Shown here in pieces: positions 2,670 to 31,439 of a stretch of DNA of 32,924 nt. Position numbers and translations under genes: made by a program. The first letter of the stretch is position 1; the number at the start of each line of letters is the position of its first letter. The notes beneath the pieces were generated by a model. It worked only from the letters and a program-made list of their open reading frames with translations, had not been told where the DNA came from and did not search any database. The stretch is taken from contig CAYTEF010000003.1 in NCBI GenBank assembly GCA_964436845.1, positions 1-32,924 of the forward strand, read 5' to 3'. This DNA is from an uncultured Candidatus Saccharibacteria bacterium (GTDB taxonomy: Bacteria > Patescibacteriota > Minisyncoccia > 2-01-FULL-47-10 > JBBTYX01).

Positions 2670-3869
2670 TCAAAAGCCTATATCTTTTCTATACCACATT
2701 CCCTCAAAGGAGATGAGGCTGACTGCGCGATAGGCACGCTCGCGCGCTTGCGCAAGGGTCTGACCCACGCCTACCACATTTAATACCCTCCCGCCGGCGG
2801 TTACGTAGTTTCCCCTTTGGCACGAGGTGCCCGCATGGAAGATAAAGACCCCTTCCTGCTTGCCTGCCTCCTCCAATCCAGATATCGGAAATCCGGTATG
2901 AGAAGTTCCCGGATACCCTTGCGACGCAAGAACCACGCACACGGCCGCCTGATTTTTCCATTGCAACCCAAAGCCGATTAAGTTTTGATTTATGGTGGCA
3001 TACATGGCGGGGATTAAGTCGGTTTCGCAAAGCATGCTTACCGCCTGAAACTCGGGATCGCCAGGGCGGGCATTAAACTCTATCACTACAGGTCCTTGCG
3101 ATCCGAATTTTAATCCGGCATATAAAACCCCTTGAAAAGGACACCCTTCGTTGCCAAGCGCTGCAAGAGTTTTATGGATGATACTTTCCAAGACTCGTCT
3201 TTCCATGCGCGGAGTCATAAGAGGGAAAGGAGCATATGCCCCCATCCCGCCTGTATTGGGACCACCCGGCCATGCTTCCTTGGTATCCTGTGCGGCAAGC
3301 AGCGGCACTGCGCGCATGCCGTCCGTAAGCACCATGTAAGAGCACTCCGGGCCGGGAACGAATTCTTCAAGGATCAATAGTTGTCCAGGGTAGAGTGTTT
3401 TCAGGCGATCCACTGCCATAAGCGTATGGTCAATGTCACGTGCAACAATCACGCCTTTGCCGGCGGCTAAACCGTCTACTTTTACCACCATGCGGTCGCG
3501 GTGCTTGCGGATGAAGGCCTTGGCTTTTTCGGGATCATGGAAAACCCAAAATGCAGGCGAGGGTATGCCATAATGACGCAAAAGTTGCCTGCACCATGCC
3601 TTACTGCTTTCAATGCGCGCGGCACCTTTCGTGGGGCCAAAGATTTTTTTACCTGCCCTTCTAAAAAGGTCCACCACCCCACTGGCTAAATAGGCTTCAG
3701 ACCCCACTATGGTGAAATCCACGGAGTTTACTACTGCTTGATGGAGCAGCGCAGAGGTGTTTTCAGGAGCGCTCTGAAGGCGAAATACACTGTTCACAAA
3801 AGGGCTTCGATTCACCATTTCCTCTATCGCAGCTTCTCGTCCACCATTTCCGACAATTCCTACGTTCAT
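2670..3869 (-). CDS. purD: Phosphoribosylamine-glycine ligase
   Basis: 399-aa ORF with an N-terminal GNGGREAA, an ATP-grasp core (VVKVDGLAAGKGV) and FNARPGDPE. Confidence 0.9.
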   Translation of the reverse strand: MNVGIVGNGGREAAIEEMVNRSPFVNSVFRLQSAPENTSALLHQAVVNSVDFTIVGSEAYLASGVVDLFRRAGKKIFGPTKGAARIESSKAWCRQLLRHYGIPSPAFWVFHDPEKAKAFIRKHRDRMVVKVDGLAAGKGVIVARDIDHTLMAVDRLKTLYPGQLLILEEFVPGPECSYMVLTDGMRAVPLLAAQDTKEAWPGGPNTGGMGAYAPFPLMTPRMERRVLESIIHKTLAALGNEGCPFQGVLYAGLKFGSQGPVVIEFNARPGDPEFQAVSMLCETDLIPAMYATINQNLIGFGLQWKNQAAVCVVLASQGYPGTSHTGFPISGLEEAGKQEGVFIFHAGTSCQRGNYVTAGGRVLNVVGVGQTLAQARERAYRAVSLISFEGMWYRKDIGF

Positions 3870-7559: not shown

Positions 7560-7958
7560 TTACAAGAGATTCAAAAATTTATTGGCGGTAAGAATCGTAA
7601 CATCCTCAAAGGAACCCAATGCGAGGAGCTCTTTATCACCGGTGATGATATACCGGCAATTCCCTTCAAGCGCTGCTTCCAGTACTCTATTGTCAGGGTT
7701 GTTATCGTTTAGTATGTCCACCTGCTTGATTGGGTGAACCATTCTAAAGCTCTGTTTTATTTTGTGTTCAGTGAGTTTGAGGGTTTCTTTAGGGAAAGAG
7801 AATTTTTTGGATAAGACATCTAAAAGTTCGGCGAGGAGCGGGGGAGAGGTTACCGCTTCTATGTGTTTTGTGATAGCGAGCTTAAGGATTTCGCGTGGTT
7901 TGCCGCCAAAAAGAAGGGCGGAAATTATAACGTTGGTGTCTATGAGCACCTTTACCAT
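7560..7958 (-). CDS. PIN-domain toxin (TA-system ribonuclease family)
   Basis: 132-aa ORF with acidic residues in PIN positions (VLIDTNV, LLAELLD, IITGDKELL). Starts 2 nt after the RHH gene. Confidence 0.85.
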   Translation of the reverse strand: MVKVLIDTNVIISALLFGGKPREILKLAITKHIEAVTSPPLLAELLDVLSKKFSFPKETLKLTEHKIKQSFRMVHPIKQVDILNDNNPDNRVLEAALEGNCRYIITGDKELLALGSFEDVTILTANKFLNLL

Positions 7959-7960
7959 GC

Positions 7961-8203
7961 CTATTTCTTATGGCGATAATCAGTGACTACCTTGTTAGCC
8001 CTTCTTTCATCGGTGATTCCCATTTTTTTGGCTTGGCGTTGACCTATTGTAAAAATTTTTTCCCATTCTTGAGTATTTTTGAGATACATGCGCAATGCTT
8101 CGCGAATGAGTTCGCTCCGATTACGGTATTCCTTTTTCGCCGTCCTGTCTATGGTTTTAACGAGATTCTCGGGTAAAGCAATATTCAATGTTTGTGTTTT
8201 CAT
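7961..8203 (-). CDS. Ribbon-helix-helix (CopG-like) antitoxin
   Basis: MKTQTLNIALPENLVKTIDRTAKKEYRNRSELIREALRMYL is the classic RHH strand-helix-helix pattern. The ORF-track start 8215 is TTG, so ATG 8203 is preferred. Confidence 0.8.
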   Translation of the reverse strand: MKTQTLNIALPENLVKTIDRTAKKEYRNRSELIREALRMYLKNTQEWEKIFTIGQRQAKKMGITDERRANKVVTDYRHKK

Positions 8204-8209
8204 AGCAGT

Positions 8210-8224
8210 ATACAATTATTGTAT
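8210..8224. promoter_or_regulatory. Palindrome ATACAAT-T-ATTGTAT, candidate RHH operator
   Basis: Perfect 7+7 inverted repeat, 7 nt upstream of the antitoxin ATG. Confidence 0.35.
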
Positions 8225-8253: not shown

Positions 8254-10728
8254 TCAAGGGATCACAAAATTTATCAACTTATTGGGGACAAAGACTATCT
8301 TTTTAGGCTCGCCTGCAATCCAGTGGGTGATGGCTTCATCCTGCTTGGCAAGCGTGACTGCCTCTTCTTGCGACAAACCCATAGGGGCAGTGATTTTTCC
8401 CCGCAACTTGCCGTTGACCTGAACGATAAAGGTAATGGTGCCTTCCTGCGTAAGTGCTTCGTCAAATGACGGGAAAGATTCTTTATGAACGCTCGTTTTA
8501 TGGCCAAGCTTTGCCCACAGCTCTTCGGAAAGGTGAGGCGCGAATGGAGCAAGGAGTTTTGTAAACGTTTCATAAAGCTCCTTTCCGTAAATACCCTCAT
8601 GGAGCGTATTCACAAAGACCATGAGCGCGGAAATCGCGGTATTAAACTTTAATTCCTCTAAATCTTGAATTATTTTTTTAATCGTTTTATGGACAAACCG
8701 CAGCGTTGTTTCGTCCGTAGTTGCAGGCTTTCCTGCTCCTTTAAGCACAAAGCGGGAAGCCCTCTCCAAAAATCGGGCGATACCGTTAATTGCGCCGGGG
8801 CTCCAGGGGCCGCCTTGATCATACGGGCCCAAAAATTCTAAAAACATGCGCACCGCATCCGACCCGTACTCGGCTACCAACGGGTCTGGATCTATCACAT
8901 TACCGCGCGACTTTGACATTTTCTGTCCGTCAGATCCCAAAATAATGCCCTGATGGCGAAGCTTGGCGAATGGCTCGGTAAAGTGAATGTGCTTTAAGTC
9001 GTAGAGCGCTTTCGTAAAAAAGCGGCTGTATAAAAGATGCAATACCGTGTGTTCTGCCCCGCCGATATAAATATCCACGGGCAGCCATGCTTTCATTTTG
9101 TCCTTATTGGCAAATACTTTATCATTTTGAGGATCAGTATAGCGCAAATAATACCAGGAAGAATCCACAAAGGTATCCATGGTATCGGTCTCGCGCGTAG
9201 CCGGGCCTTTGCACTTGGGGCAGGAGGTGTTTACGAATTCCTTTACTTTTGCCAAAGGCGAGCGGCCGTCATCGGCAGGGTGAAAGTTTTTTAATTCGGG
9301 CAGTAATACCGGCAATTCTTTTTCGGGCACCGGAACAAGTCCGCATTTGGGACATTCCACCATAGGAATCGGCGCGCCCCAGTATCGCTGGCGCGACACA
9401 ATCCAGTCCCGAAGTTTGTATTGCACCTTCGGCTCTCCGAATTCTTTAGCCATCAAGGGAATTGCTTCCTGCGATTTCATCCCGGTGAATTTTCCTGAAT
9501 TAGCCAATATCCCTTCCCCTGTATATGCTTCCTCTTGATTTCCTTTTTGCGAGGCGATGACCTCAATAATAGGCAGTCCAAATGTTTTTGCAAATTCAAA
9601 GTCGCGCTCGTCATGCGCGGGCACGGCCATAATCGCTCCGGTGCCGTATTCACCTAACACATAGTCCGCAACCCAGATAGGAATTTCTTTATTAGTTGCA
9701 GGGTTAATCGCTTTTATGCCTTGTATCTCAACCCCAGTTTTTTGTTTTTGTTCAGCCTGTCGTTGCAAGGGTGTTTTTTTTAGTGATTGCTTGATGTATT
9801 CTTGTACTTCCTCATAATTCCTAATTCCTGATTCCTGATTCCTTAAGATTGGATGCTCGGGCGCTAATACCAAGTACGTCGCTCCAAAAATAGTATCCGG
9901 CCTTGTGGTAAATACTTTGATTTGCATCAAAGTCGCGGAATCACGCAGAACCGACGCTGAATTACGCTGAATTTTTTCTGCTTTTTTCTGCGTAAAGTCT
10001 GCGTATATCTGCGAGGAGTAGTGGAGCGGGAATACTATTTGCGCTCCACTACTCCTACCAATCCAGTTTTTTTGCATTGTTTTTGTGCGATCCGGCCAGT
10101 CAAGTATATCCAAATCATCCAGCAAGCGCTGGGCGTAATCGGTAATGGTAAATACCCATTGATCAATCTGGCGTTGCAATACTTCAGTATTGCAACGCTC
10201 GCATCGGCCCTCCACTACTTGTTCGTTTGCAAGCACGGTTTTGCACGAGGGGCACCAGTTTGCCCACGTTTTTCGTTTTTGCGCTTTGCCCGCCTTGAAC
10301 ATTTGCAAAAACATCCATTGTGTCCATTTATAATAGTCGGGGTTGCAGGTAATAAGCTCGCGCGACCAGTCATACATTGGCCCCATGGATTTTAATTGCA
10401 CCCGCATTGTTTCAATATTCTGAAATGTCCAGTCAGCAGGATGGATATTGCGCTTAATCGCGGCATTTTCTGCCGGAAGTCCAAATGCGTCAAAGCCAAT
10501 GGGCGAGAGCACATTGAACCCTTGCATGCGCTTAAAGCGCGCGTAGGTATCAGCGGGAGCAAAGTTATACCAGTGGCCAATATGCAAATCCCCAGAAGGA
10601 TAGGGGAACATCACAAGGTGGTAAAAATTTTTCCTTCTCTTCACCTTATCTTTTGTCTTGTAGAGATTCGCCTTTTCCCACCGCCTCTGCCACTTTTTTT
10701 CTATTTTTGGTAGATCTAATTTTGCCAT
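8254..10728 (-). CDS. leuS: Leucine-tRNA ligase
   Basis: 824-aa ORF with PYPSGDLHIGH, NWIGRS, TTRPDT (CP1 editing domain) and KMSKS. No SD precedes the ATG. Confidence 0.95.
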   Translation of the reverse strand: MAKLDLPKIEKKWQRRWEKANLYKTKDKVKRRKNFYHLVMFPYPSGDLHIGHWYNFAPADTYARFKRMQGFNVLSPIGFDAFGLPAENAAIKRNIHPADWTFQNIETMRVQLKSMGPMYDWSRELITCNPDYYKWTQWMFLQMFKAGKAQKRKTWANWCPSCKTVLANEQVVEGRCERCNTEVLQRQIDQWVFTITDYAQRLLDDLDILDWPDRTKTMQKNWIGRSSGAQIVFPLHYSSQIYADFTQKKAEKIQRNSASVLRDSATLMQIKVFTTRPDTIFGATYLVLAPEHPILRNQESGIRNYEEVQEYIKQSLKKTPLQRQAEQKQKTGVEIQGIKAINPATNKEIPIWVADYVLGEYGTGAIMAVPAHDERDFEFAKTFGLPIIEVIASQKGNQEEAYTGEGILANSGKFTGMKSQEAIPLMAKEFGEPKVQYKLRDWIVSRQRYWGAPIPMVECPKCGLVPVPEKELPVLLPELKNFHPADDGRSPLAKVKEFVNTSCPKCKGPATRETDTMDTFVDSSWYYLRYTDPQNDKVFANKDKMKAWLPVDIYIGGAEHTVLHLLYSRFFTKALYDLKHIHFTEPFAKLRHQGIILGSDGQKMSKSRGNVIDPDPLVAEYGSDAVRMFLEFLGPYDQGGPWSPGAINGIARFLERASRFVLKGAGKPATTDETTLRFVHKTIKKIIQDLEELKFNTAISALMVFVNTLHEGIYGKELYETFTKLLAPFAPHLSEELWAKLGHKTSVHKESFPSFDEALTQEGTITFIVQVNGKLRGKITAPMGLSQEEAVTLAKQDEAITHWIAGEPKKIVFVPNKLINFVIP
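9815..9842. repeat. Heptanucleotide tandem repeat (TRATTCC)x4 inside leuS
   Basis: taattcc taattcc tgattcc tgattcc; encodes RNQESGIRN just after the APEHP motif. Confidence 0.85.
9914..10055 (-). repeat. Hairpin-bounded repeat element, copy B, inserted in frame in leuS
   Basis: Core 9976..10015 matches 71..110 at 36/40. Six 10-11-nt units end in CTGC(G)/GCTGA. Junction hairpins are 10015..10028/10042..10055 (14 bp perfect) and 9914..9921/9926..9933 (8 bp perfect). Confidence 0.75.
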
Positions 10729-10729
10729 A

Positions 10730-11039
10730 CCAGGTAGTAGAAATTTGACTATTTTTTATGTGAATAAAAGTATTCTTTTAGCATACGCTTTAGTAATCGA
10801 CCACCTTGACTCGTTTTAAGGTATTTTTCTCTACGCGTGGCATCTTCTTTATTTTGATATGCTTCGTAGAAAATGAGCTGCCAGGGTCTATAAGGCTTTG
10901 TTGAGAAAACGAGTCCGCGATTATGTTCTTCTATCCGCCTTCTTAAATTTTTAGTATATCCAATATACAACGCATCCTTGGCATTTTTTAGTAAATATAC
11001 ATAGAAGAACATAATCGCTGTCAAATTTTCACTACCTGG
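10730..11039 (-). mobile_element. Inverted-repeat-bracketed GIY-YIG ORF cassette (putative)
   Basis: 10730..10749 (ccaggtagtagaaatttgac) is the reverse complement of 11020..11039 at 18/20 positions. The repeats enclose exactly one small ORF. Confidence 0.4.
10749..11012 (-). CDS. GIY-YIG nuclease family protein (small, about 87 aa)
   Basis: MFFYVYLLKNAKDALYIGYTKNLRRRIEEHNRG contains the GIY-YIG motifs. The ORF-track start 11042 would add MPGSENLTAI, which is encoded by the inverted repeat. Confidence 0.8.
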   Translation of the reverse strand: MFFYVYLLKNAKDALYIGYTKNLRRRIEEHNRGLVFSTKPYRPWQLIFYEAYQNKEDATRREKYLKTSQGGRLLKRMLKEYFYSHKK

Positions 11040-11050
11040 CATATGCTTTG

Positions 11051-11079
11051 ATTATACCGATAAAGCGCCTTATTCGCAA
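11051..11079 (-). promoter_or_regulatory. Strong sigma70-type promoter driving GIY-YIG and leuS
   Basis: Minus strand reads TTGCGA, 17 nt, TATAAT. ATG 11042 lies 8 nt after the -10, so the transcript 5' end is essentially the inverted repeat. Confidence 0.6.
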
Positions 11080-12120: not shown

Positions 12121-13071
12121 TTACTTCTTGAGGAATTGCTGAATATCCGCTTGCGCTTCCTTAAGATTTTTTACCCAGTGAATACCTTTTTGTTTGGCAA
12201 ACCAGGTGTATTGTTTTTTGACGAGCGCCTTTGTGTTTTTAATGATGTCGTCCTTGACTTGCTCAAGGGTTTTTTGTTTCTCAAAGAATCCCTGCCATTC
12301 TTTATAGCCGATGGTGCCTAAGAGTAGGTTATTCCATCCGTATTTATCAACAAGAGCTTTGACTTCCTTTTCTAATCCTTGAGCAATCATCTCCTGCGCG
12401 CGTTGATTGATATTTGCAACGAGTTGGTTTTTGGGGATATCAATGCCCAGTTGAAGTATTTGGAACAATTCTGGACCCTTTTTGAGCTGTTTTGAGAAGG
12501 GTTTACCCGTGATCATAGTCACTTCAAGCGCGCGGATGAGTCGCCGTTTATTGTCGTTATCTATCCTTTTTGCACTTTCGGGATCATTATTTTTTAGCAT
12601 TTGATAAAGCTCCTGTTCGCTCTTTCTCTCCAACTCTTCTCGTATTTCCTTTTGGGCGGGCACTTCCGGAATTTGCAGATTATCAAGGATTGCCTTGATA
12701 TAAAGCCCTGTACCGCCCACTAAAAAAGGCAGTTTTCCCCGTGCCTGTATATCTTTAATCACTTCAATCGCGAGCTTTTTATAATTCGCGACACTAAAGT
12801 CTTGATCAGGATTAATGGCATCGAAAAGATAGTAAGAGATTTTCTGTATTTGATATATTGGAATTTTGAATTTATTTGGAAATTGTTTCTTGGAAATTGA
12901 TGCTTCTTTAGCTGTGCTAAAGTTTGGTTTTGCGGTACCAATCGTGAGTTCTTTATATATTTGGCGCGAGTCGGCGTTGATAATCTCTCCACCAAAAACG
13001 CCCGCTAATTCATGGGCGAGCGCTGTTTTGCCGGATGCGGTGGGACCAAGAATAACGATGAGTTTATCCAT
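12121..13071 (-). CDS. miaA: tRNA dimethylallyltransferase
   Basis: MDKLIVILGPTASGKT P-loop and DSRQIYKELTIGTAKP. The ORF-track start 13095 is TTG inside an inverted repeat, so ATG 13071 is preferred. No SD. Confidence 0.9.
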   Translation of the reverse strand: MDKLIVILGPTASGKTALAHELAGVFGGEIINADSRQIYKELTIGTAKPNFSTAKEASISKKQFPNKFKIPIYQIQKISYYLFDAINPDQDFSVANYKKLAIEVIKDIQARGKLPFLVGGTGLYIKAILDNLQIPEVPAQKEIREELERKSEQELYQMLKNNDPESAKRIDNDNKRRLIRALEVTMITGKPFSKQLKKGPELFQILQLGIDIPKNQLVANINQRAQEMIAQGLEKEVKALVDKYGWNNLLLGTIGYKEWQGFFEKQKTLEQVKDDIIKNTKALVKKQYTWFAKQKGIHWVKNLKEAQADIQQFLKK

Positions 13072-13076
13072 AAGTA

Positions 13077-13546
13077 ACAAGGATACAAGAGACAAGCACC
13101 AAACAAATTAAAAATTTGAAATGAAAGAAAACAAAAACAATCAGTTATCAGATTTTTTTATAATCGCTGAGAGAATGTTTCTTAATTCTTGGGCCTCCCG
13201 ATGGAGATTTTCCATTCGAGATTTAAATTGTTCATTAGCTTCTTCTATAAGAATGAGCCAATGCATTGTCTCTTTTGATTCTTTACGCGCAATCTTTAAG
13301 CGGTGGATGAAATCTCTCTTACCTAAAGCGTCATTTGCTTCTCTATAATTTGCTCCTATGGAGCCTGCCGAACCAACTATCTGCCCAATCAAGCGATCAT
13401 TCATAGGGTTTTTGGGAAGTTCTTTGCACAAGCGAATTATGCGTCTTGCGAATTCAGTAGACCTATCTTCAAGGTCATACCTTTTAGTGAAGTTTTGATT
13501 ATTGACCATTAGAATTTGTTTGTATCCTTGCCTCTTGTATCTTGGT
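13077..13546 (-). mobile_element. Inverted-repeat-bracketed four-helix-bundle ORF cassette (putative, IVS-like)
   Basis: 13077..13109 aligns with the reverse complement of 13511..13546 at about 27 of 34 positions. Exact blocks are gatacaagag, caag and aaacaaatt, with one indel. Confidence 0.35.
13141..13509 (-). CDS. Four-helix-bundle protein (23S rRNA intervening-sequence protein / Avd family)
   Basis: 122-aa ORF with the family pattern (ARRIIRLCKELPK..., GSIGANYREA..., FIHRLKIARKESKETMHWL). The start overlaps the last 11 nt of thrS. Confidence 0.8.
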   Translation of the reverse strand: MVNNQNFTKRYDLEDRSTEFARRIIRLCKELPKNPMNDRLIGQIVGSAGSIGANYREANDALGKRDFIHRLKIARKESKETMHWLILIEEANEQFKSRMENLHREAQELRNILSAIIKKSDN

Positions 13547-15265
13547 TATTTTAATAAATTCTTTAAGACTCATAGCTCCCTTATCGTCATCTCCACGTTT
13601 ACGGATGGCGATTTTTTGCTCCTCGGCTTCTTTTTTGCCGATCACCAGCAGATAAGGGATTTTTTGTAGTTCGCCCTCGCGAATTTTTTTGCCTATACTC
13701 TCATTGCGGTCATCAAGCTCTACGCGCAAATTGTGTTTCTCAAGCGTGGATAGCACCTCTCTTGCATAATTTACCACTTCTTCGCTAATAGTAAGAATTT
13801 TTGCCTGCACCGGGGAAAGCCAGAATGGAAAGGCGCCCGCCAGATGTTCAATGAGTATGGAAAGGAAACGCTCGATGGAGCCCATAATGGCTATATGAAT
13901 CATCACAATCCGTTCTTTTCCTCCCTCCTCATTCACGCAGGTAAGATCAAAACGTTCGGGTAAGTTAATATCAAGCTGAATGGTGGCAAGCTGCCATTCT
14001 CTTCCCAATGAATCTTTGGCGATAAAATCAATTTTGGGGCCGTAAAATGCCGCTTCGCCAATCGCTTCCTCGGGGTCTACGTTATTAGTTTTGGCAATCT
14101 CACGCAGTTGCGTCTCGGTTTTTTGCCATAACGCGGCTGTGCCTAAATAATTTTTAAAGTTTTCAGGGTCGTGGAGTGAGAGGCGCACGCGCGTGGAAAG
14201 GTCAACTTTTTTATAAAATGAGTTTACAATACCCCATGTCGCTGCGATTTCTTCCTTAATCTGCGACTGGCGGCAAAACACATGCGAATCGTCTTGCGTG
14301 AATGCCCGCAGGCGTGAAAGCCCGGAAAGTTCTCCTGTCTGCTCGTCGCGGTAGCACATAGTGGTTGAGGCATAGCGTTGGGGCAGTTCGCGATAACTCC
14401 AGAGTTTGCGGCTATAAATTTGCGTATGGTGAGGGCAATTCATGGGCTTCATGGCAAAGGTATGCCCCTCCCGCGACTCTATCTTAAAAAGTTCGTCTTT
14501 AAATTTTTCCCAGTGTCCGCTTTTTTCGTAAAGCTCTTTTTTGGTAATATGGGGGATTTCTACTTTTTGGTAGCCTCGTTCGTGACGAAGCTGCCACACG
14601 GCTTCATCAAGAATGTTTCGTACGAGGGTGCCTTTGGGTGTCCATAAGGGAAGACCCGGCCCGACTAATTCAGAAAACAAAAATAAATCCAACTTTGGCC
14701 CGAGGATTTTATGATCGCGTTTCTTTGCTTCTTCCAGCATGGCCAGATGCGCATCAAGCTCTTTTCTGGTTTGGAAAGCTAACCCATAAATGCGTTGCAA
14801 CTGTTCGCGCTTTTCATCGCCCCGCCAGTACGCGCCAGCAACATGGGTAAGGGTAAAGGCATCAGCAGAAATTTCACTGGTATTTTGCACATGGCCGCCC
14901 TTGCACAGGTCAAAAAAAACCTCACCCGTATAATAGAGAGTAAGCTCTTTGCCCTCTTTGGCGAGTTCATCAATGAGTTCGGACTTAAATGGCTGATGGT
15001 TAAGACGTTTTTTTGCTTCGCTCGCGGTTATTTTTTCTCCCTTAAAGGGCAATTTTTTCTTTATTATGGAGCGCATTTCTTTCTCAAGGCTTTTGAGCAT
15101 GTCGGGAGCAGGTGCTTCCGAAAGCAAAAAATCATAGTAAAACCCGTTTTCAATAACGGGCCCAATACCAAGCTTTGCGTGGGGAAATTGTTTTAATACC
15201 GCCATCGCAAGGATATGTGAAAGAGAGTGACGTATATGCTCTATTTGCATAAAGGTATCAATCAT
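13499..15265 (-). CDS. thrS: Threonine-tRNA ligase (no N-terminal TGS domain)
   Basis: 588-aa ORF that begins directly with the HSLSHILAMAV...GFYYDF second-additional/editing domain, followed by a class II catalytic core and anticodon-binding domain. Confidence 0.95.
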   Translation of the reverse strand: MIDTFMQIEHIRHSLSHILAMAVLKQFPHAKLGIGPVIENGFYYDFLLSEAPAPDMLKSLEKEMRSIIKKKLPFKGEKITASEAKKRLNHQPFKSELIDELAKEGKELTLYYTGEVFFDLCKGGHVQNTSEISADAFTLTHVAGAYWRGDEKREQLQRIYGLAFQTRKELDAHLAMLEEAKKRDHKILGPKLDLFLFSELVGPGLPLWTPKGTLVRNILDEAVWQLRHERGYQKVEIPHITKKELYEKSGHWEKFKDELFKIESREGHTFAMKPMNCPHHTQIYSRKLWSYRELPQRYASTTMCYRDEQTGELSGLSRLRAFTQDDSHVFCRQSQIKEEIAATWGIVNSFYKKVDLSTRVRLSLHDPENFKNYLGTAALWQKTETQLREIAKTNNVDPEEAIGEAAFYGPKIDFIAKDSLGREWQLATIQLDINLPERFDLTCVNEEGGKERIVMIHIAIMGSIERFLSILIEHLAGAFPFWLSPVQAKILTISEEVVNYAREVLSTLEKHNLRVELDDRNESIGKKIREGELQKIPYLLVIGKKEAEEQKIAIRKRGDDDKGAMSLKEFIKITKIQEARIQTNSNGQ

Positions 15266-30681: not shown

Positions 30682-30692
30682 TGTAAAATTCA

Positions 30693-30733
30693 AAATCCGA
30701 AATACGAAATTTCGCATTTCGCCATTCGGATTT
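30693..30733 (+). promoter_or_regulatory. 15-bp interrupted hairpin in the rnc leader
   Basis: Outer stem 30693..30701/30725..30733 (9 bp); inner stem 30705..30710/30716..30721 (6 bp). It ends 7 nt before the rnc SD. Confidence 0.6.
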
Positions 30734-30749
30734 GGGATTTAGGAGAAAA

Positions 30750-31439
30750 ATGTCCCAGATTGAGGAAATTGAAAACCATATCAGCGTATCGTTCAAGAAT
30801 AAGGATTTACTCACACAGGCATTAATGCATCGCTCGTTCGTGGTGGAAAATCGCTTGGGCGATTTGGCATCCAACGAACGGCTTGAATTTCTTGGCGACG
30901 CGGTGTTGGAATTAGTCATTACCGATTATCTCTATCAGTCCTTCCCTGATAAGCCCGAGGGAATACTTACCCAGCTTCGCTCGGTGATTGTGAATACCAA
31001 GACACTTGCCCAATCCCTGCGAAAGCTTAACTTTGGCGAATATATCTTCCTCTCGCGCGGGGAGAAAATCTCGGGCGGAGCGGAAAAAGAGCGCATCTTG
31101 GCAAACATTCTTGAAGCCATTATCGGCGCGTTATACCTTGATCAGGGATACGAGAAGGCAAAAGAATTTATTGAAAGAGCTATTTTGAGCAACGCCTCAA
31201 AACTCGTTGCGTCAAGTAGTGAGTATAACCCCAAGGGCATTTTGCAGGAAGCCATTCAGGCATCAAAACGCGTTACTCCTGAATATAAAATTCTGGAAGA
31301 ATCAGGGCCTGATCATAGTAAAGTATTCGTCGCGGGCGCCTTCCTTGAGGGGAAAAAGATAGGCGAAGGAAGGGGCGTTTCTAAAAAGGAAGCAGAAGAG
31401 GAAGCCGCGAGAGACGCGCTTAATCATGTTAAAAAATAA
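30750..31439 (+). CDS. rnc: Ribonuclease III
   Basis: Signature NERLEFLGDAVLE and a C-terminal dsRBD (SGPDHSKVF...KKEAEEEAA). AGGAG lies 4 nt before ATG 30750; the ORF-track start 30732 is TTG. Confidence 0.9.
   Translation: MSQIEEIENHISVSFKNKDLLTQALMHRSFVVENRLGDLASNERLEFLGDAVLELVITDYLYQSFPDKPEGILTQLRSVIVNTKTLAQSLRKLNFGEYIFLSRGEKISGGAEKERILANILEAIIGALYLDQGYEKAKEFIERAILSNASKLVASSSEYNPKGILQEAIQASKRVTPEYKILEESGPDHSKVFVAGAFLEGKKIGEGRGVSKKEAEEEAARDALNHVKK

Follow-up and report, generated by a model that had tools for sequence, protein, structure and literature searches.

A short open reading frame (ORF) for a GIY-YIG nuclease stands directly in front of leuS in a contig of an uncultured Candidatus Saccharibacteria bacterium, enclosed between two 20-nt inverted repeats, and the locus raises the question of what these repeats are for: they may be the ends of a mobile cassette that has landed at the leuS start codon, or the two strands of an RNA stem through which the leuS message is processed. 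The stretch analysed, called the window here, comprises 32,924 nt (GenBank assembly GCA_964436845.1, contig CAYTEF010000003.1, positions 1 to 32,924), and a first-pass annotation of it had offered both possibilities. Positions 10730–11039, read on the minus strand, probably make up one member of a Patescibacteria family of hairpin-ended mobile DNA cassettes in which every element has a single-domain GIY-YIG gene. The leuS cassette has clear transposon-like hallmarks, and the family is large and apparently undescribed, a full-text literature search having found no description of a hairpin-ended GIY-YIG start-codon cassette.

The locus reads, on the minus strand, TTGCGA-17-TATAAT-CAAAGCA-TATG-CCAGGTAGTGAAAATTTGAC ... 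GTCAAATTTCTACTACCTGG-TATG-GCAAAA. The promoter (11051..11079), recognised in the annotation and matching at 10 of 12 positions in a consensus scan, is native to leuS and today serves the cassette ORF, the end of its -10 box lying 8 nt upstream of the GIY-YIG ATG. The left copy of the target duplication TATG (11040..11043) contains the original leuS start, which now serves as the first GIY-YIG codon, and is followed by the 5' arm (11020..11039), which forms the 5' strand of an outer helix, P1, encodes PGSENLT and holds the GA half of a central tandem mismatch; the 3' arm (10730..10749) forms the other strand and holds the CT half. The two arms are reverse complements at 18 of 20 positions and bracket exactly one small GIY-YIG ORF (10749..11042, 97 aa; Pfam PF01541, E=2.4e-17), both as annotated, while in a repeat finder the match grows to 23 nt (10727–10749 / 11020–11042, 87%) because the flanking TATG contributes three pairs. 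The arm motif, searched through the whole window with up to three mismatches, occurs only at the two arm sites, with 0 matches expected by chance. The overlap of the 3' arm with the nuclease stop codon, also remarked upon earlier, amounts to 1 nt only, the G of TAG, and the arm does end 1 nt before the ATG of leuS (8254..10728), which lacks a Shine-Dalgarno sequence, follows the GIY-YIG stop at a distance of 20 nt and is regenerated by the right copy of TATG (10726..10729). Within the cassette an inner helix, P2, joins GCGATTATGTTCTTCTAT (11001..11018) and ATAGAAGAACATAATCGC (10917..10934) in an 18-bp perfect duplex, pairing the codons around an internal ATG (11012..11010, M11), at which the GIY-YIG core starts, with the codons IEEHNR. 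Folding of the transcript, proposed as a check in the annotation, gives -102.6 kcal/mol as against -62.4 kcal/mol in shuffles (z=-8.8), and the same region folded as DNA is likewise far more stable than its shuffles (z=-6.1).

The nature of this arrangement emerges from comparison with a relative. Among the proteins of the collection the nearest LeuS, at 79% identity, is encoded on a syntenic contig, L081 (thrS-miaA ... leuS ... pyrD), where the site reads TTGCGA-17-TATAAT-CTAATCAC-TATG-GCTAAACTGGAT without a cassette, the window having TATAAT-CAAAGCA-TATG[310 bp]TATG-GCAAAATTAGAT instead. Since the same promoter stands directly before leuS in L081, with neither a GIY-YIG gene nor an arm, the window carries an insertion, which relative to L081 consists of a cassette of 310 bp (CCAGG...CCTGG) and a second copy of TATG; insertion, duplication and placement at the leuS start codon are all established by this comparison, and the cassette is absent also from three further leuS loci, making four closest leuS loci in all. 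The annotation had suggested looking for an empty site with one copy of the repeat: the cassette-free leuS exists, but no repeat copy is found there, only a single TATG. In L081 the leuS ATG lies 9 nt past TATAAT (...CACTATGGCTAAACTGGAT), leuS is therefore natively leaderless, and the cassette has therefore taken over both its promoter and its start codon.

A scan restricted to one genome per species returned 367 loci, 80 of which were kept for analysis, with names that are either Patescibacteria/Candidate Phyla Radiation (CPR) or non-specific ('uncultured', 'bacterium'). More than 1000 GIY-YIG homologues are found at 65–77% identity, and elements of the family are ~300–330 bp long. Two findings on which the annotation had made its proposal depend, conservation of the repeats around homologues and compensatory change that maintains their pairing, both emerge from this set. 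Of 81 copies, 60 have their gene inside the same stem at an unchanged position, as compared with four of 810 controls of the same geometry, and two further copies have the stem at longer spacing. Stem statistics were taken from 59 arm pairs aligned without gaps, in which the 20-bp core is paired essentially always and 17–19 of the pairs have changed on both sides; compensatory cells number 213, where shuffles give 79 +/- 7.5, and pairing holds in 86% of cells, a figure that drops to 31–44% when the partner is slid by 1–3 columns. The ends of the cassette thus covary. The tandem mismatch at arm positions 10–11 (G.T + A.C) is kept in 57 of the 59 elements, in either order; its orientation (5' GA / 3' CT versus 5' AG / 3' TC) has been swapped at least 15 times among them, even between orthologous insertions (L028 and L037), and Watson-Crick intermediates are almost never found. 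As coding sequence, P2 is for the most part invariant, yet compensatory changes appear at its outer pairs in other elements (for example GGTTATG/CATAACC). When whole elements are given to RNAalifold, P1 alone is retained, and support for P2 comes from an explicit pair count.

Exact 4-nt direct repeats flank 40 of the 59 elements. In 28 cases the repeat is TATG and in 12 another tetramer (TGGA, TACG, ATGA, GAGG, TGCG, TGCA, TGTT, AGAA); as these other tetramers are identical on both sides, they represent duplicated target and not a part of the element. The start of a host ATG lies -1 to +1 nt from the arm end in 43 of the 59 and no further than +3 nt in 45; 44 are counted as sitting on a host start codon, often that of a leaderless gene. 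The host genes vary from locus to locus, more than 40 different ones having no shared target beyond (T)ATG. At 18 of the 43 start-codon sites a -10-like box lies 4–10 nt upstream of the ATG, against only 4.8% of random ATGs, which marks these host genes as leaderless; other start-codon insertions sit inside operons. Where an element lies at a host 3' end, the host C-terminus and stop codon are re-created by the 5' arm, as in RNase Y and in a gene ending in '...NWTG*'. The RNase Y 3' end (...IRETRxVEYAR*) carries the cassette in three genomes (L020:2168-3320, L048, L056), and in two of the three a 12–15-nt direct copy of the arm start lies behind the 3' arm.

The family also has members without a gene. 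About 13 mini elements of 67–85 nt retain the same arms, the mismatch and TATG or TGGA flanks, their loops forming two small GC hairpins, and about nine mid-size elements of 115–150 nt likewise have the same arms, mismatch and flanks without an ORF. Coverage of the arms in the groundwater metagenome from which the window comes is 20–25x that of the neighbouring sequence, and contigs join both arms via loops of 32–38 nt. With an empty site, 4-nt duplications, many hosts and ORF-less copies, the mobile nuclease-in-a-stem cassette that the annotation had considered in front of leuS is strongly supported. A further arrangement is seen in ten loci (L036, L038, L039, L042, L049, L052, L055, L061, L062 and L070, mostly at ~2900–3300), where a complete, TGGA-duplicated mini hairpin stands right behind the '...NWTG*' gene and the next GIY-YIG gene has no 3' arm of its own; this is possibly an immobilised copy.

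The nuclease itself consists, in the window protein, of PF01541 as the sole domain found (residues 13–77), and homologues are 85–105 aa long. The catalytic residues Y/Y/R/H/E are invariant across 30 homologues, and the N-terminal MPGSENST(AIM) hardly varies, since the 5' arm encodes it. ORFs are intact in 54 of 59 elements and dN/dS is about 0.1–0.17, or 0.09–0.28 with pairs at orthologous sites included, so that purifying selection is evident and, judged by its evolution, the nuclease is functional. The best match in the PDB is the UPF0213 protein 1zg2 (E=9e-6), followed by 1ywl and SLX1, and no NCBIfam family matches the protein at cut-off. In tblastn it is 42% identical (50 bits) to a Rhizobium protein whose gene is flanked by the SRM hairpins considered below, and 38–41% identical (45–51 bits) to UPF0213-type proteins. 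UPF0213 (YhbQ/YazA) and SLX1 share the same minimal URI domain; unlike the cassette gene, B. subtilis yazA has no enclosing repeat, and the UPF0213 group is, to our knowledge, not known as mobile.

The closest parallel in operation is offered by the Ssn enzymes, which the available text of Chenal et al. (2025, Nat Commun, PMC11893778) describes as single-domain GIY-YIG nucleases of ~94 aa that bind NTS/SRM hairpins as single-stranded DNA (ssDNA) only, cut just outside them and tolerate loop extensions, the ssn genes being flanked by their hairpins 'like an IS' (insertion sequence). As far as that text goes, the cassettes share with Ssn a single-domain GIY-YIG nuclease (~90–97 aa), a gene tied on both sides to hairpin-forming inverted repeats in inverted, IS-like orientation, dispersed ORF-less copies of the hairpin, and a conserved stem sequence that suggests recognition of both sequence and structure. 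Two genuine SRM-flanked genes, one from a Rhizobium and one from an Azospirillum plasmid, encode proteins ~42% identical to that of the window. The layout differs, however: Ssn genes lie between complete hairpins, whereas the cassette gene lies inside the loop of one split hairpin, with a conserved central tandem mismatch as a further distinction in the stem. Neither 4-nt target duplications nor start-codon insertion were found in what PMC11893778 reports of Ssn in its available text, which places Ssn mainly in Pseudomonadati as opposed to the Patescibacteria hosting the cassettes. The '...NWTG*' arrangement is closer to the Ssn layout. On Azospirillum lipoferum plasmid AZO_p3 (L166, 254818–256415), a GIY-YIG gene of Ssn type with flanking SRMs has inserted between sufB and sufC; a pair of hairpins stands on either side of it, the two sides being inverted relative to each other, and the locus is a good one to compare with. 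Two Patescibacteria loci (L005:3443, L029:973) contain canonical Ssn-type SRM/NTS hairpins (TGTCATCCCGGGCYTGACCCGGGATCCAG) with no adjacent GIY-YIG gene. The cassette thus appears to resemble the Ssn/hairpin pair in its working; membership is not claimed, the SRM motif being mismatched.

By analogy with Ssn, a course of events for the cassette can be proposed. The two arms would pair with each other as ssDNA, and the cassette's own GIY-YIG nuclease would recognise the resulting hairpin by sequence and shape, as Ssn does with NTS/SRM hairpins, and cut beside it, thereby moving or maintaining the element. Integration would take place via a 4-nt staggered cut. Insertions would persist only at sites that leave host genes intact, a condition that would account for the location at start codons as well as for host stop codons being re-created. 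We read these positions as at least partly survivorship in gene-dense genomes, atop a real TATG preference.

Several observations weigh against a mobile cassette worked by its own nuclease, or temper the claim. The action of the GIY-YIG protein on the arms is argued by analogy, and the protein is as near to UPF0213/YazA as to Ssn-type proteins. GIY-YIG enzymes hydrolyse DNA; we know of no transposase role for them in prokaryotes, and the rejoining of strands is left unexplained. The SRM motif HGTCWY..YYVSBRH..WNVSBRG..RNCYNB has three matches in the 0.5 Mb of window and loci, none of them at the arms, the same expression finding four to five SRMs around the Rhizobium and Azospirillum genes. 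About 20 of the 81 copies have no enclosing stem, though ten of these carry a complete mini hairpin upstream instead. Recent transposition was not seen: identical proteins stood at one and the same genomic site in every sample, two proteins that occur on 50+ contigs having the same neighbours throughout, copies within a genome are at most ~77% identical and no recent burst is apparent. Together with the conservation of orthologous copies, this indicates that movement is rare or ancient. The purifying selection on orthologous copies could mean that the element has a host-useful rather than a selfish function. The swapping of the mismatch, for its part, could be produced by two inversions with cross-overs flanking the mismatch. 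Finally, all cassette sequences come from metagenome assemblies.

Among established mobile elements, insertion sequences and miniature inverted-repeat transposable elements (MITEs) share with the cassettes terminal inverted repeats of ~20 bp, a fixed 4-bp target duplication, presence/absence polymorphism, and ORF-bearing and ORF-less copies with common ends. Unlike an IS, however, the cassette has as its sole ORF a GIY-YIG hydrolase of 90 aa instead of a DDE, HUH, serine or tyrosine enzyme, its ~310 bp are well under the size of a typical autonomous IS, its ends covary as a helix where an IS has two conserved protein-binding sites, and no identical copies were found at different sites. The IS200/IS605 and REP/RAYT (repetitive extragenic palindrome and its associated tyrosine transposase) systems work with an HUH/Y1 enzyme and a covalent intermediate, carry subterminal hairpins at both ends and do not duplicate their target. 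The cassettes resemble them as small elements with dispersed ORF-less repeats, whose ends would act as ssDNA hairpins for their own nuclease, and differ in the GIY-YIG enzyme, in the single hairpin built from both ends and in the 4-nt duplication.

The alternative that deserves the closest attention, although it is unlikely as the reason for the repeats, is a device acting at the level of RNA, as in the intervening sequences (IVS) of rRNA: a double-stranded RNA stem of 20–23 bp would be cut by RNase III, the insert removed and a near-leaderless leuS mRNA released, the complementarity of the arms being selected in RNA. The strong predicted RNA fold speaks for it, as does the presence in the window of rnc (30732..31439, plus strand; Pfam Ribonucleas_3_3 2.7e-39 and dsrm), which the annotation had pointed out and whose product is a candidate processor of transcribed stems, 20–23 bp being a suitable substrate. 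P2 holds G.U pairs and hides the internal ATG, and leuS, having no Shine-Dalgarno sequence, must get expressed somehow. The 28-bp stem of the Coxiella IVS is cut mid-stem by RNase III (PMC4990558), and rRNA genes of CPR bacteria contain GIY-YIG-encoding insertions without a match to group I or group II introns, as well as 23S_rRNA_IVP-encoding insertions, scattered over several sites (PMC11270868).

The second cassette in the window adds to the case for RNA, being a classic IVS protein gene inside a 25-bp stem. The annotation had ascribed the same geometry to a four-helix-bundle gene nearby, and rightly so: a cassette at 13072..13551 (minus strand) has arms of 25 nt at 84% identity (13527–13551 / 13072–13096) around an ORF (13141–13509) of PF05635, the 23S rRNA IVS protein family. 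Its 3' arm reaches precisely to the true ATG of miaA (13071), and in L081 thrS and miaA overlap (ATGAATAA) without a four-helix-bundle gene. On this comparison the leuS cassette and this one are both lineage-specific, inserted immediately before host start codons. In the 13069–13095 region of the window, the start of the longest miaA ORF (TTG 13095) falls within the 3' arm, the real start most likely being ATG 13071, which matches the MNKLVVILGP of the relative, and the final ~16 codons of thrS are supplied by cassette DNA. Repeats enclose PF05635 genes in 62 of 79 metagenome loci (L085–L164) compared with two of 413 controls. The arms at such loci, 17–50 nt long, are runs of ~7-nt units (CAAGATA / CAAGAAA / CAATAAC / CAAACAA), and the host ATG often lies within 12 nt past the 3' arm.

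The likeness of the cassettes to the 23S rRNA IVS of Coxiella, Leptospira and Salmonella (PMC4990558) extends to a small ORF within an inverted-repeat stem of 20–28 bp, a sporadic distribution, an origin and mobility that are obscure in both, and, in the second cassette, the IVS protein family itself. Whereas IVS sit in rRNA helices, however, these cassettes sit at the start codons of protein genes, leuS and miaA, and the cargo of the leuS cassette is a nuclease; no rRNA location was found in the window or in the 17 loci tested that have no flanking ATG. An RNA-level device also leaves the target duplications, the ORF-less copies and the conserved tandem mismatch unexplained. A further argument lies in the pattern of pairing in P1. 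Of 1062 cells in the core, 1044 (98.3%) are Watson-Crick, with two G.T (G.U in RNA) against nine A.C on the sense strand, and the variable pairs show no one-sided changes. RNA helices under selection normally tolerate and accumulate G.U. The near absence of such pairs points to pairing in DNA, or some templated process, as a better fit to P1 than an RNA helix. P2, which unlike P1 does hold G.U pairs, may act in the mRNA. A test of which strand is used, by the type of wobble (seven G.T against two A.C on the 'GA-first' strand), involved cells that are too few and not independent, and was left aside.

The expression of leuS behind the cassette nevertheless has to be considered at the RNA level. 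The nuclease is fused in frame to the host start codon in 17 of 43 elements, the window included, and the other 26 have an upstream ORF of 3–34 codons ending beside the internal ATG, a typical coupling layout. The nuclease stop lies 16–34 nt (mode ~20) ahead of the regenerated host ATG. The mRNA would form P1 and P2, P2 hiding the internal ATG, and the short distance past the nuclease stop would allow leuS to be translated by re-initiation 20 nt further on or after cleavage of the stem, for instance by RNase III. Such a cut falls inside the stem, leaving ~10 nt or more of arm, so the leuS message would not be leaderless. The earlier idea of a leaderless leuS stands in so far as leuS is natively leaderless in L081, but processing is not the best reason for the complementarity of the arms: cleavage by RNase III with release of a leaderless leuS is plausible, by analogy with IVS, though not as the main reason for the repeats. 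An RNA-level device is compatible with a DNA cassette as a secondary effect and is no rival to it at the DNA level. A candidate sigma-70 promoter for leuS within the 3' arm was discarded, its TACTAC missing the T6 expected in a -10 box.

That the gene is a free-standing homing endonuclease gene, spread by double-strand-break repair and with incidental repeats, is very improbable. GIY-YIG is a classic homing endonuclease fold, the protein has weak NCBIfam matches to a group I intron endonuclease and UvrC, and presence or absence at leuS is polymorphic; homing, however, expects one cognate site, and more than 40 different host genes have no common target beyond (T)ATG. Nor does homing agree with the 4-nt duplications, the covarying ends and the ORF-less copies, or with a protein of 90 aa that has no DNA-binding domain. 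A group I or II intron or a ribozyme was rejected as well, since the Rfam scan of the window at gathering thresholds returned tRNA-Trp only and a permissive scan of the cassette gave a chance miRNA match. Still less credible is a host regulatory leader, evolved in place for leuS-specific attenuation or translational coupling. The position between promoter and leuS, the stop 20 nt before the ATG and the strong structure would suit it, but the four closest leuS loci have no cassette, identical architecture stands before dozens of unrelated genes, and the ORF encodes a conserved nuclease and not a leader peptide. A chance inverted repeat around a small ORF can be dismissed, for although permissive repeat-finder settings give 126 inverted pairs in the window, no arm matches are expected by chance and the stem recurs around homologues far above its controls.

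With the hairpin-ended mobile cassette as the favoured reading of the locus, a more ambitious one can be entertained, though tentatively and with more doubt than confidence: that the family constitutes a new class of transposable element, in which a GIY-YIG protein of ~90 aa is the sole transposase and acts on the end hairpin. At ~310 bp such elements would be the smallest autonomous ones known; they would target T/ATG, often at leaderless genes, perhaps on account of ssDNA exposed there in the open promoter complex, and hijack promoter and start codon while regenerating a start codon for the host gene. The Ssn/NTS systems of Proteobacteria would be relatives or domesticated descendants, and the PF05635 'IVS protein' cassettes would represent parallel cargo.

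Other features of the neighbourhood are recorded here in their own right. Within leuS, a perfect 15-bp hairpin at 10014–10056 (minus strand; AGGAGTAGTGGAGCG-13 nt-CGCTCCACTACTCCT; DNA fold z=-5.7) has a 5' arm of native GRSSGA codons and a 3' arm in a 12-aa insertion (VFPLHYSSQIYA) that is absent from the closest LeuS, and resembles an inverted duplication kept in frame. The GTAGTG/CACTAC core of this hairpin is similar to the cassette arm core, and a second insertion in leuS, of 14 aa, follows the 12-aa one. A ribbon-helix-helix (RHH) and PIN toxin-antitoxin pair lies at 7560–8215 (minus strand) between leuS and tRNA-Trp, a position taken by a NUDIX gene in the closest relative. An imperfect palindrome of 25–28 nt (30686–30740) lies in the short interval that separates nusB from rnc.

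For the biology of Ssn-like GIY-YIG/hairpin elements, the empty site, the fixed-length duplications and the MITE-like derivatives supply evidence of (past) mobility that was formerly missing. They also illustrate how an element can insert without disruption in gene-dense genomes, by landing on a start codon, taking over promoter and ATG, and regenerating an ATG for an essential gene. The annotation of CPR genomes is affected at no fewer than 367 loci, the N-terminal 'MPGSENST' being element DNA, starts such as that of miaA being mis-called and leaderless starts being hidden. The conserved stem with its tandem mismatch offers a well-delimited candidate substrate on which a new nuclease specific for sequence and structure might act, and the long-unexplained intervening sequences of rRNA, together with the four-helix-bundle protein, become tied to a wider class of stem-enclosed cassettes.

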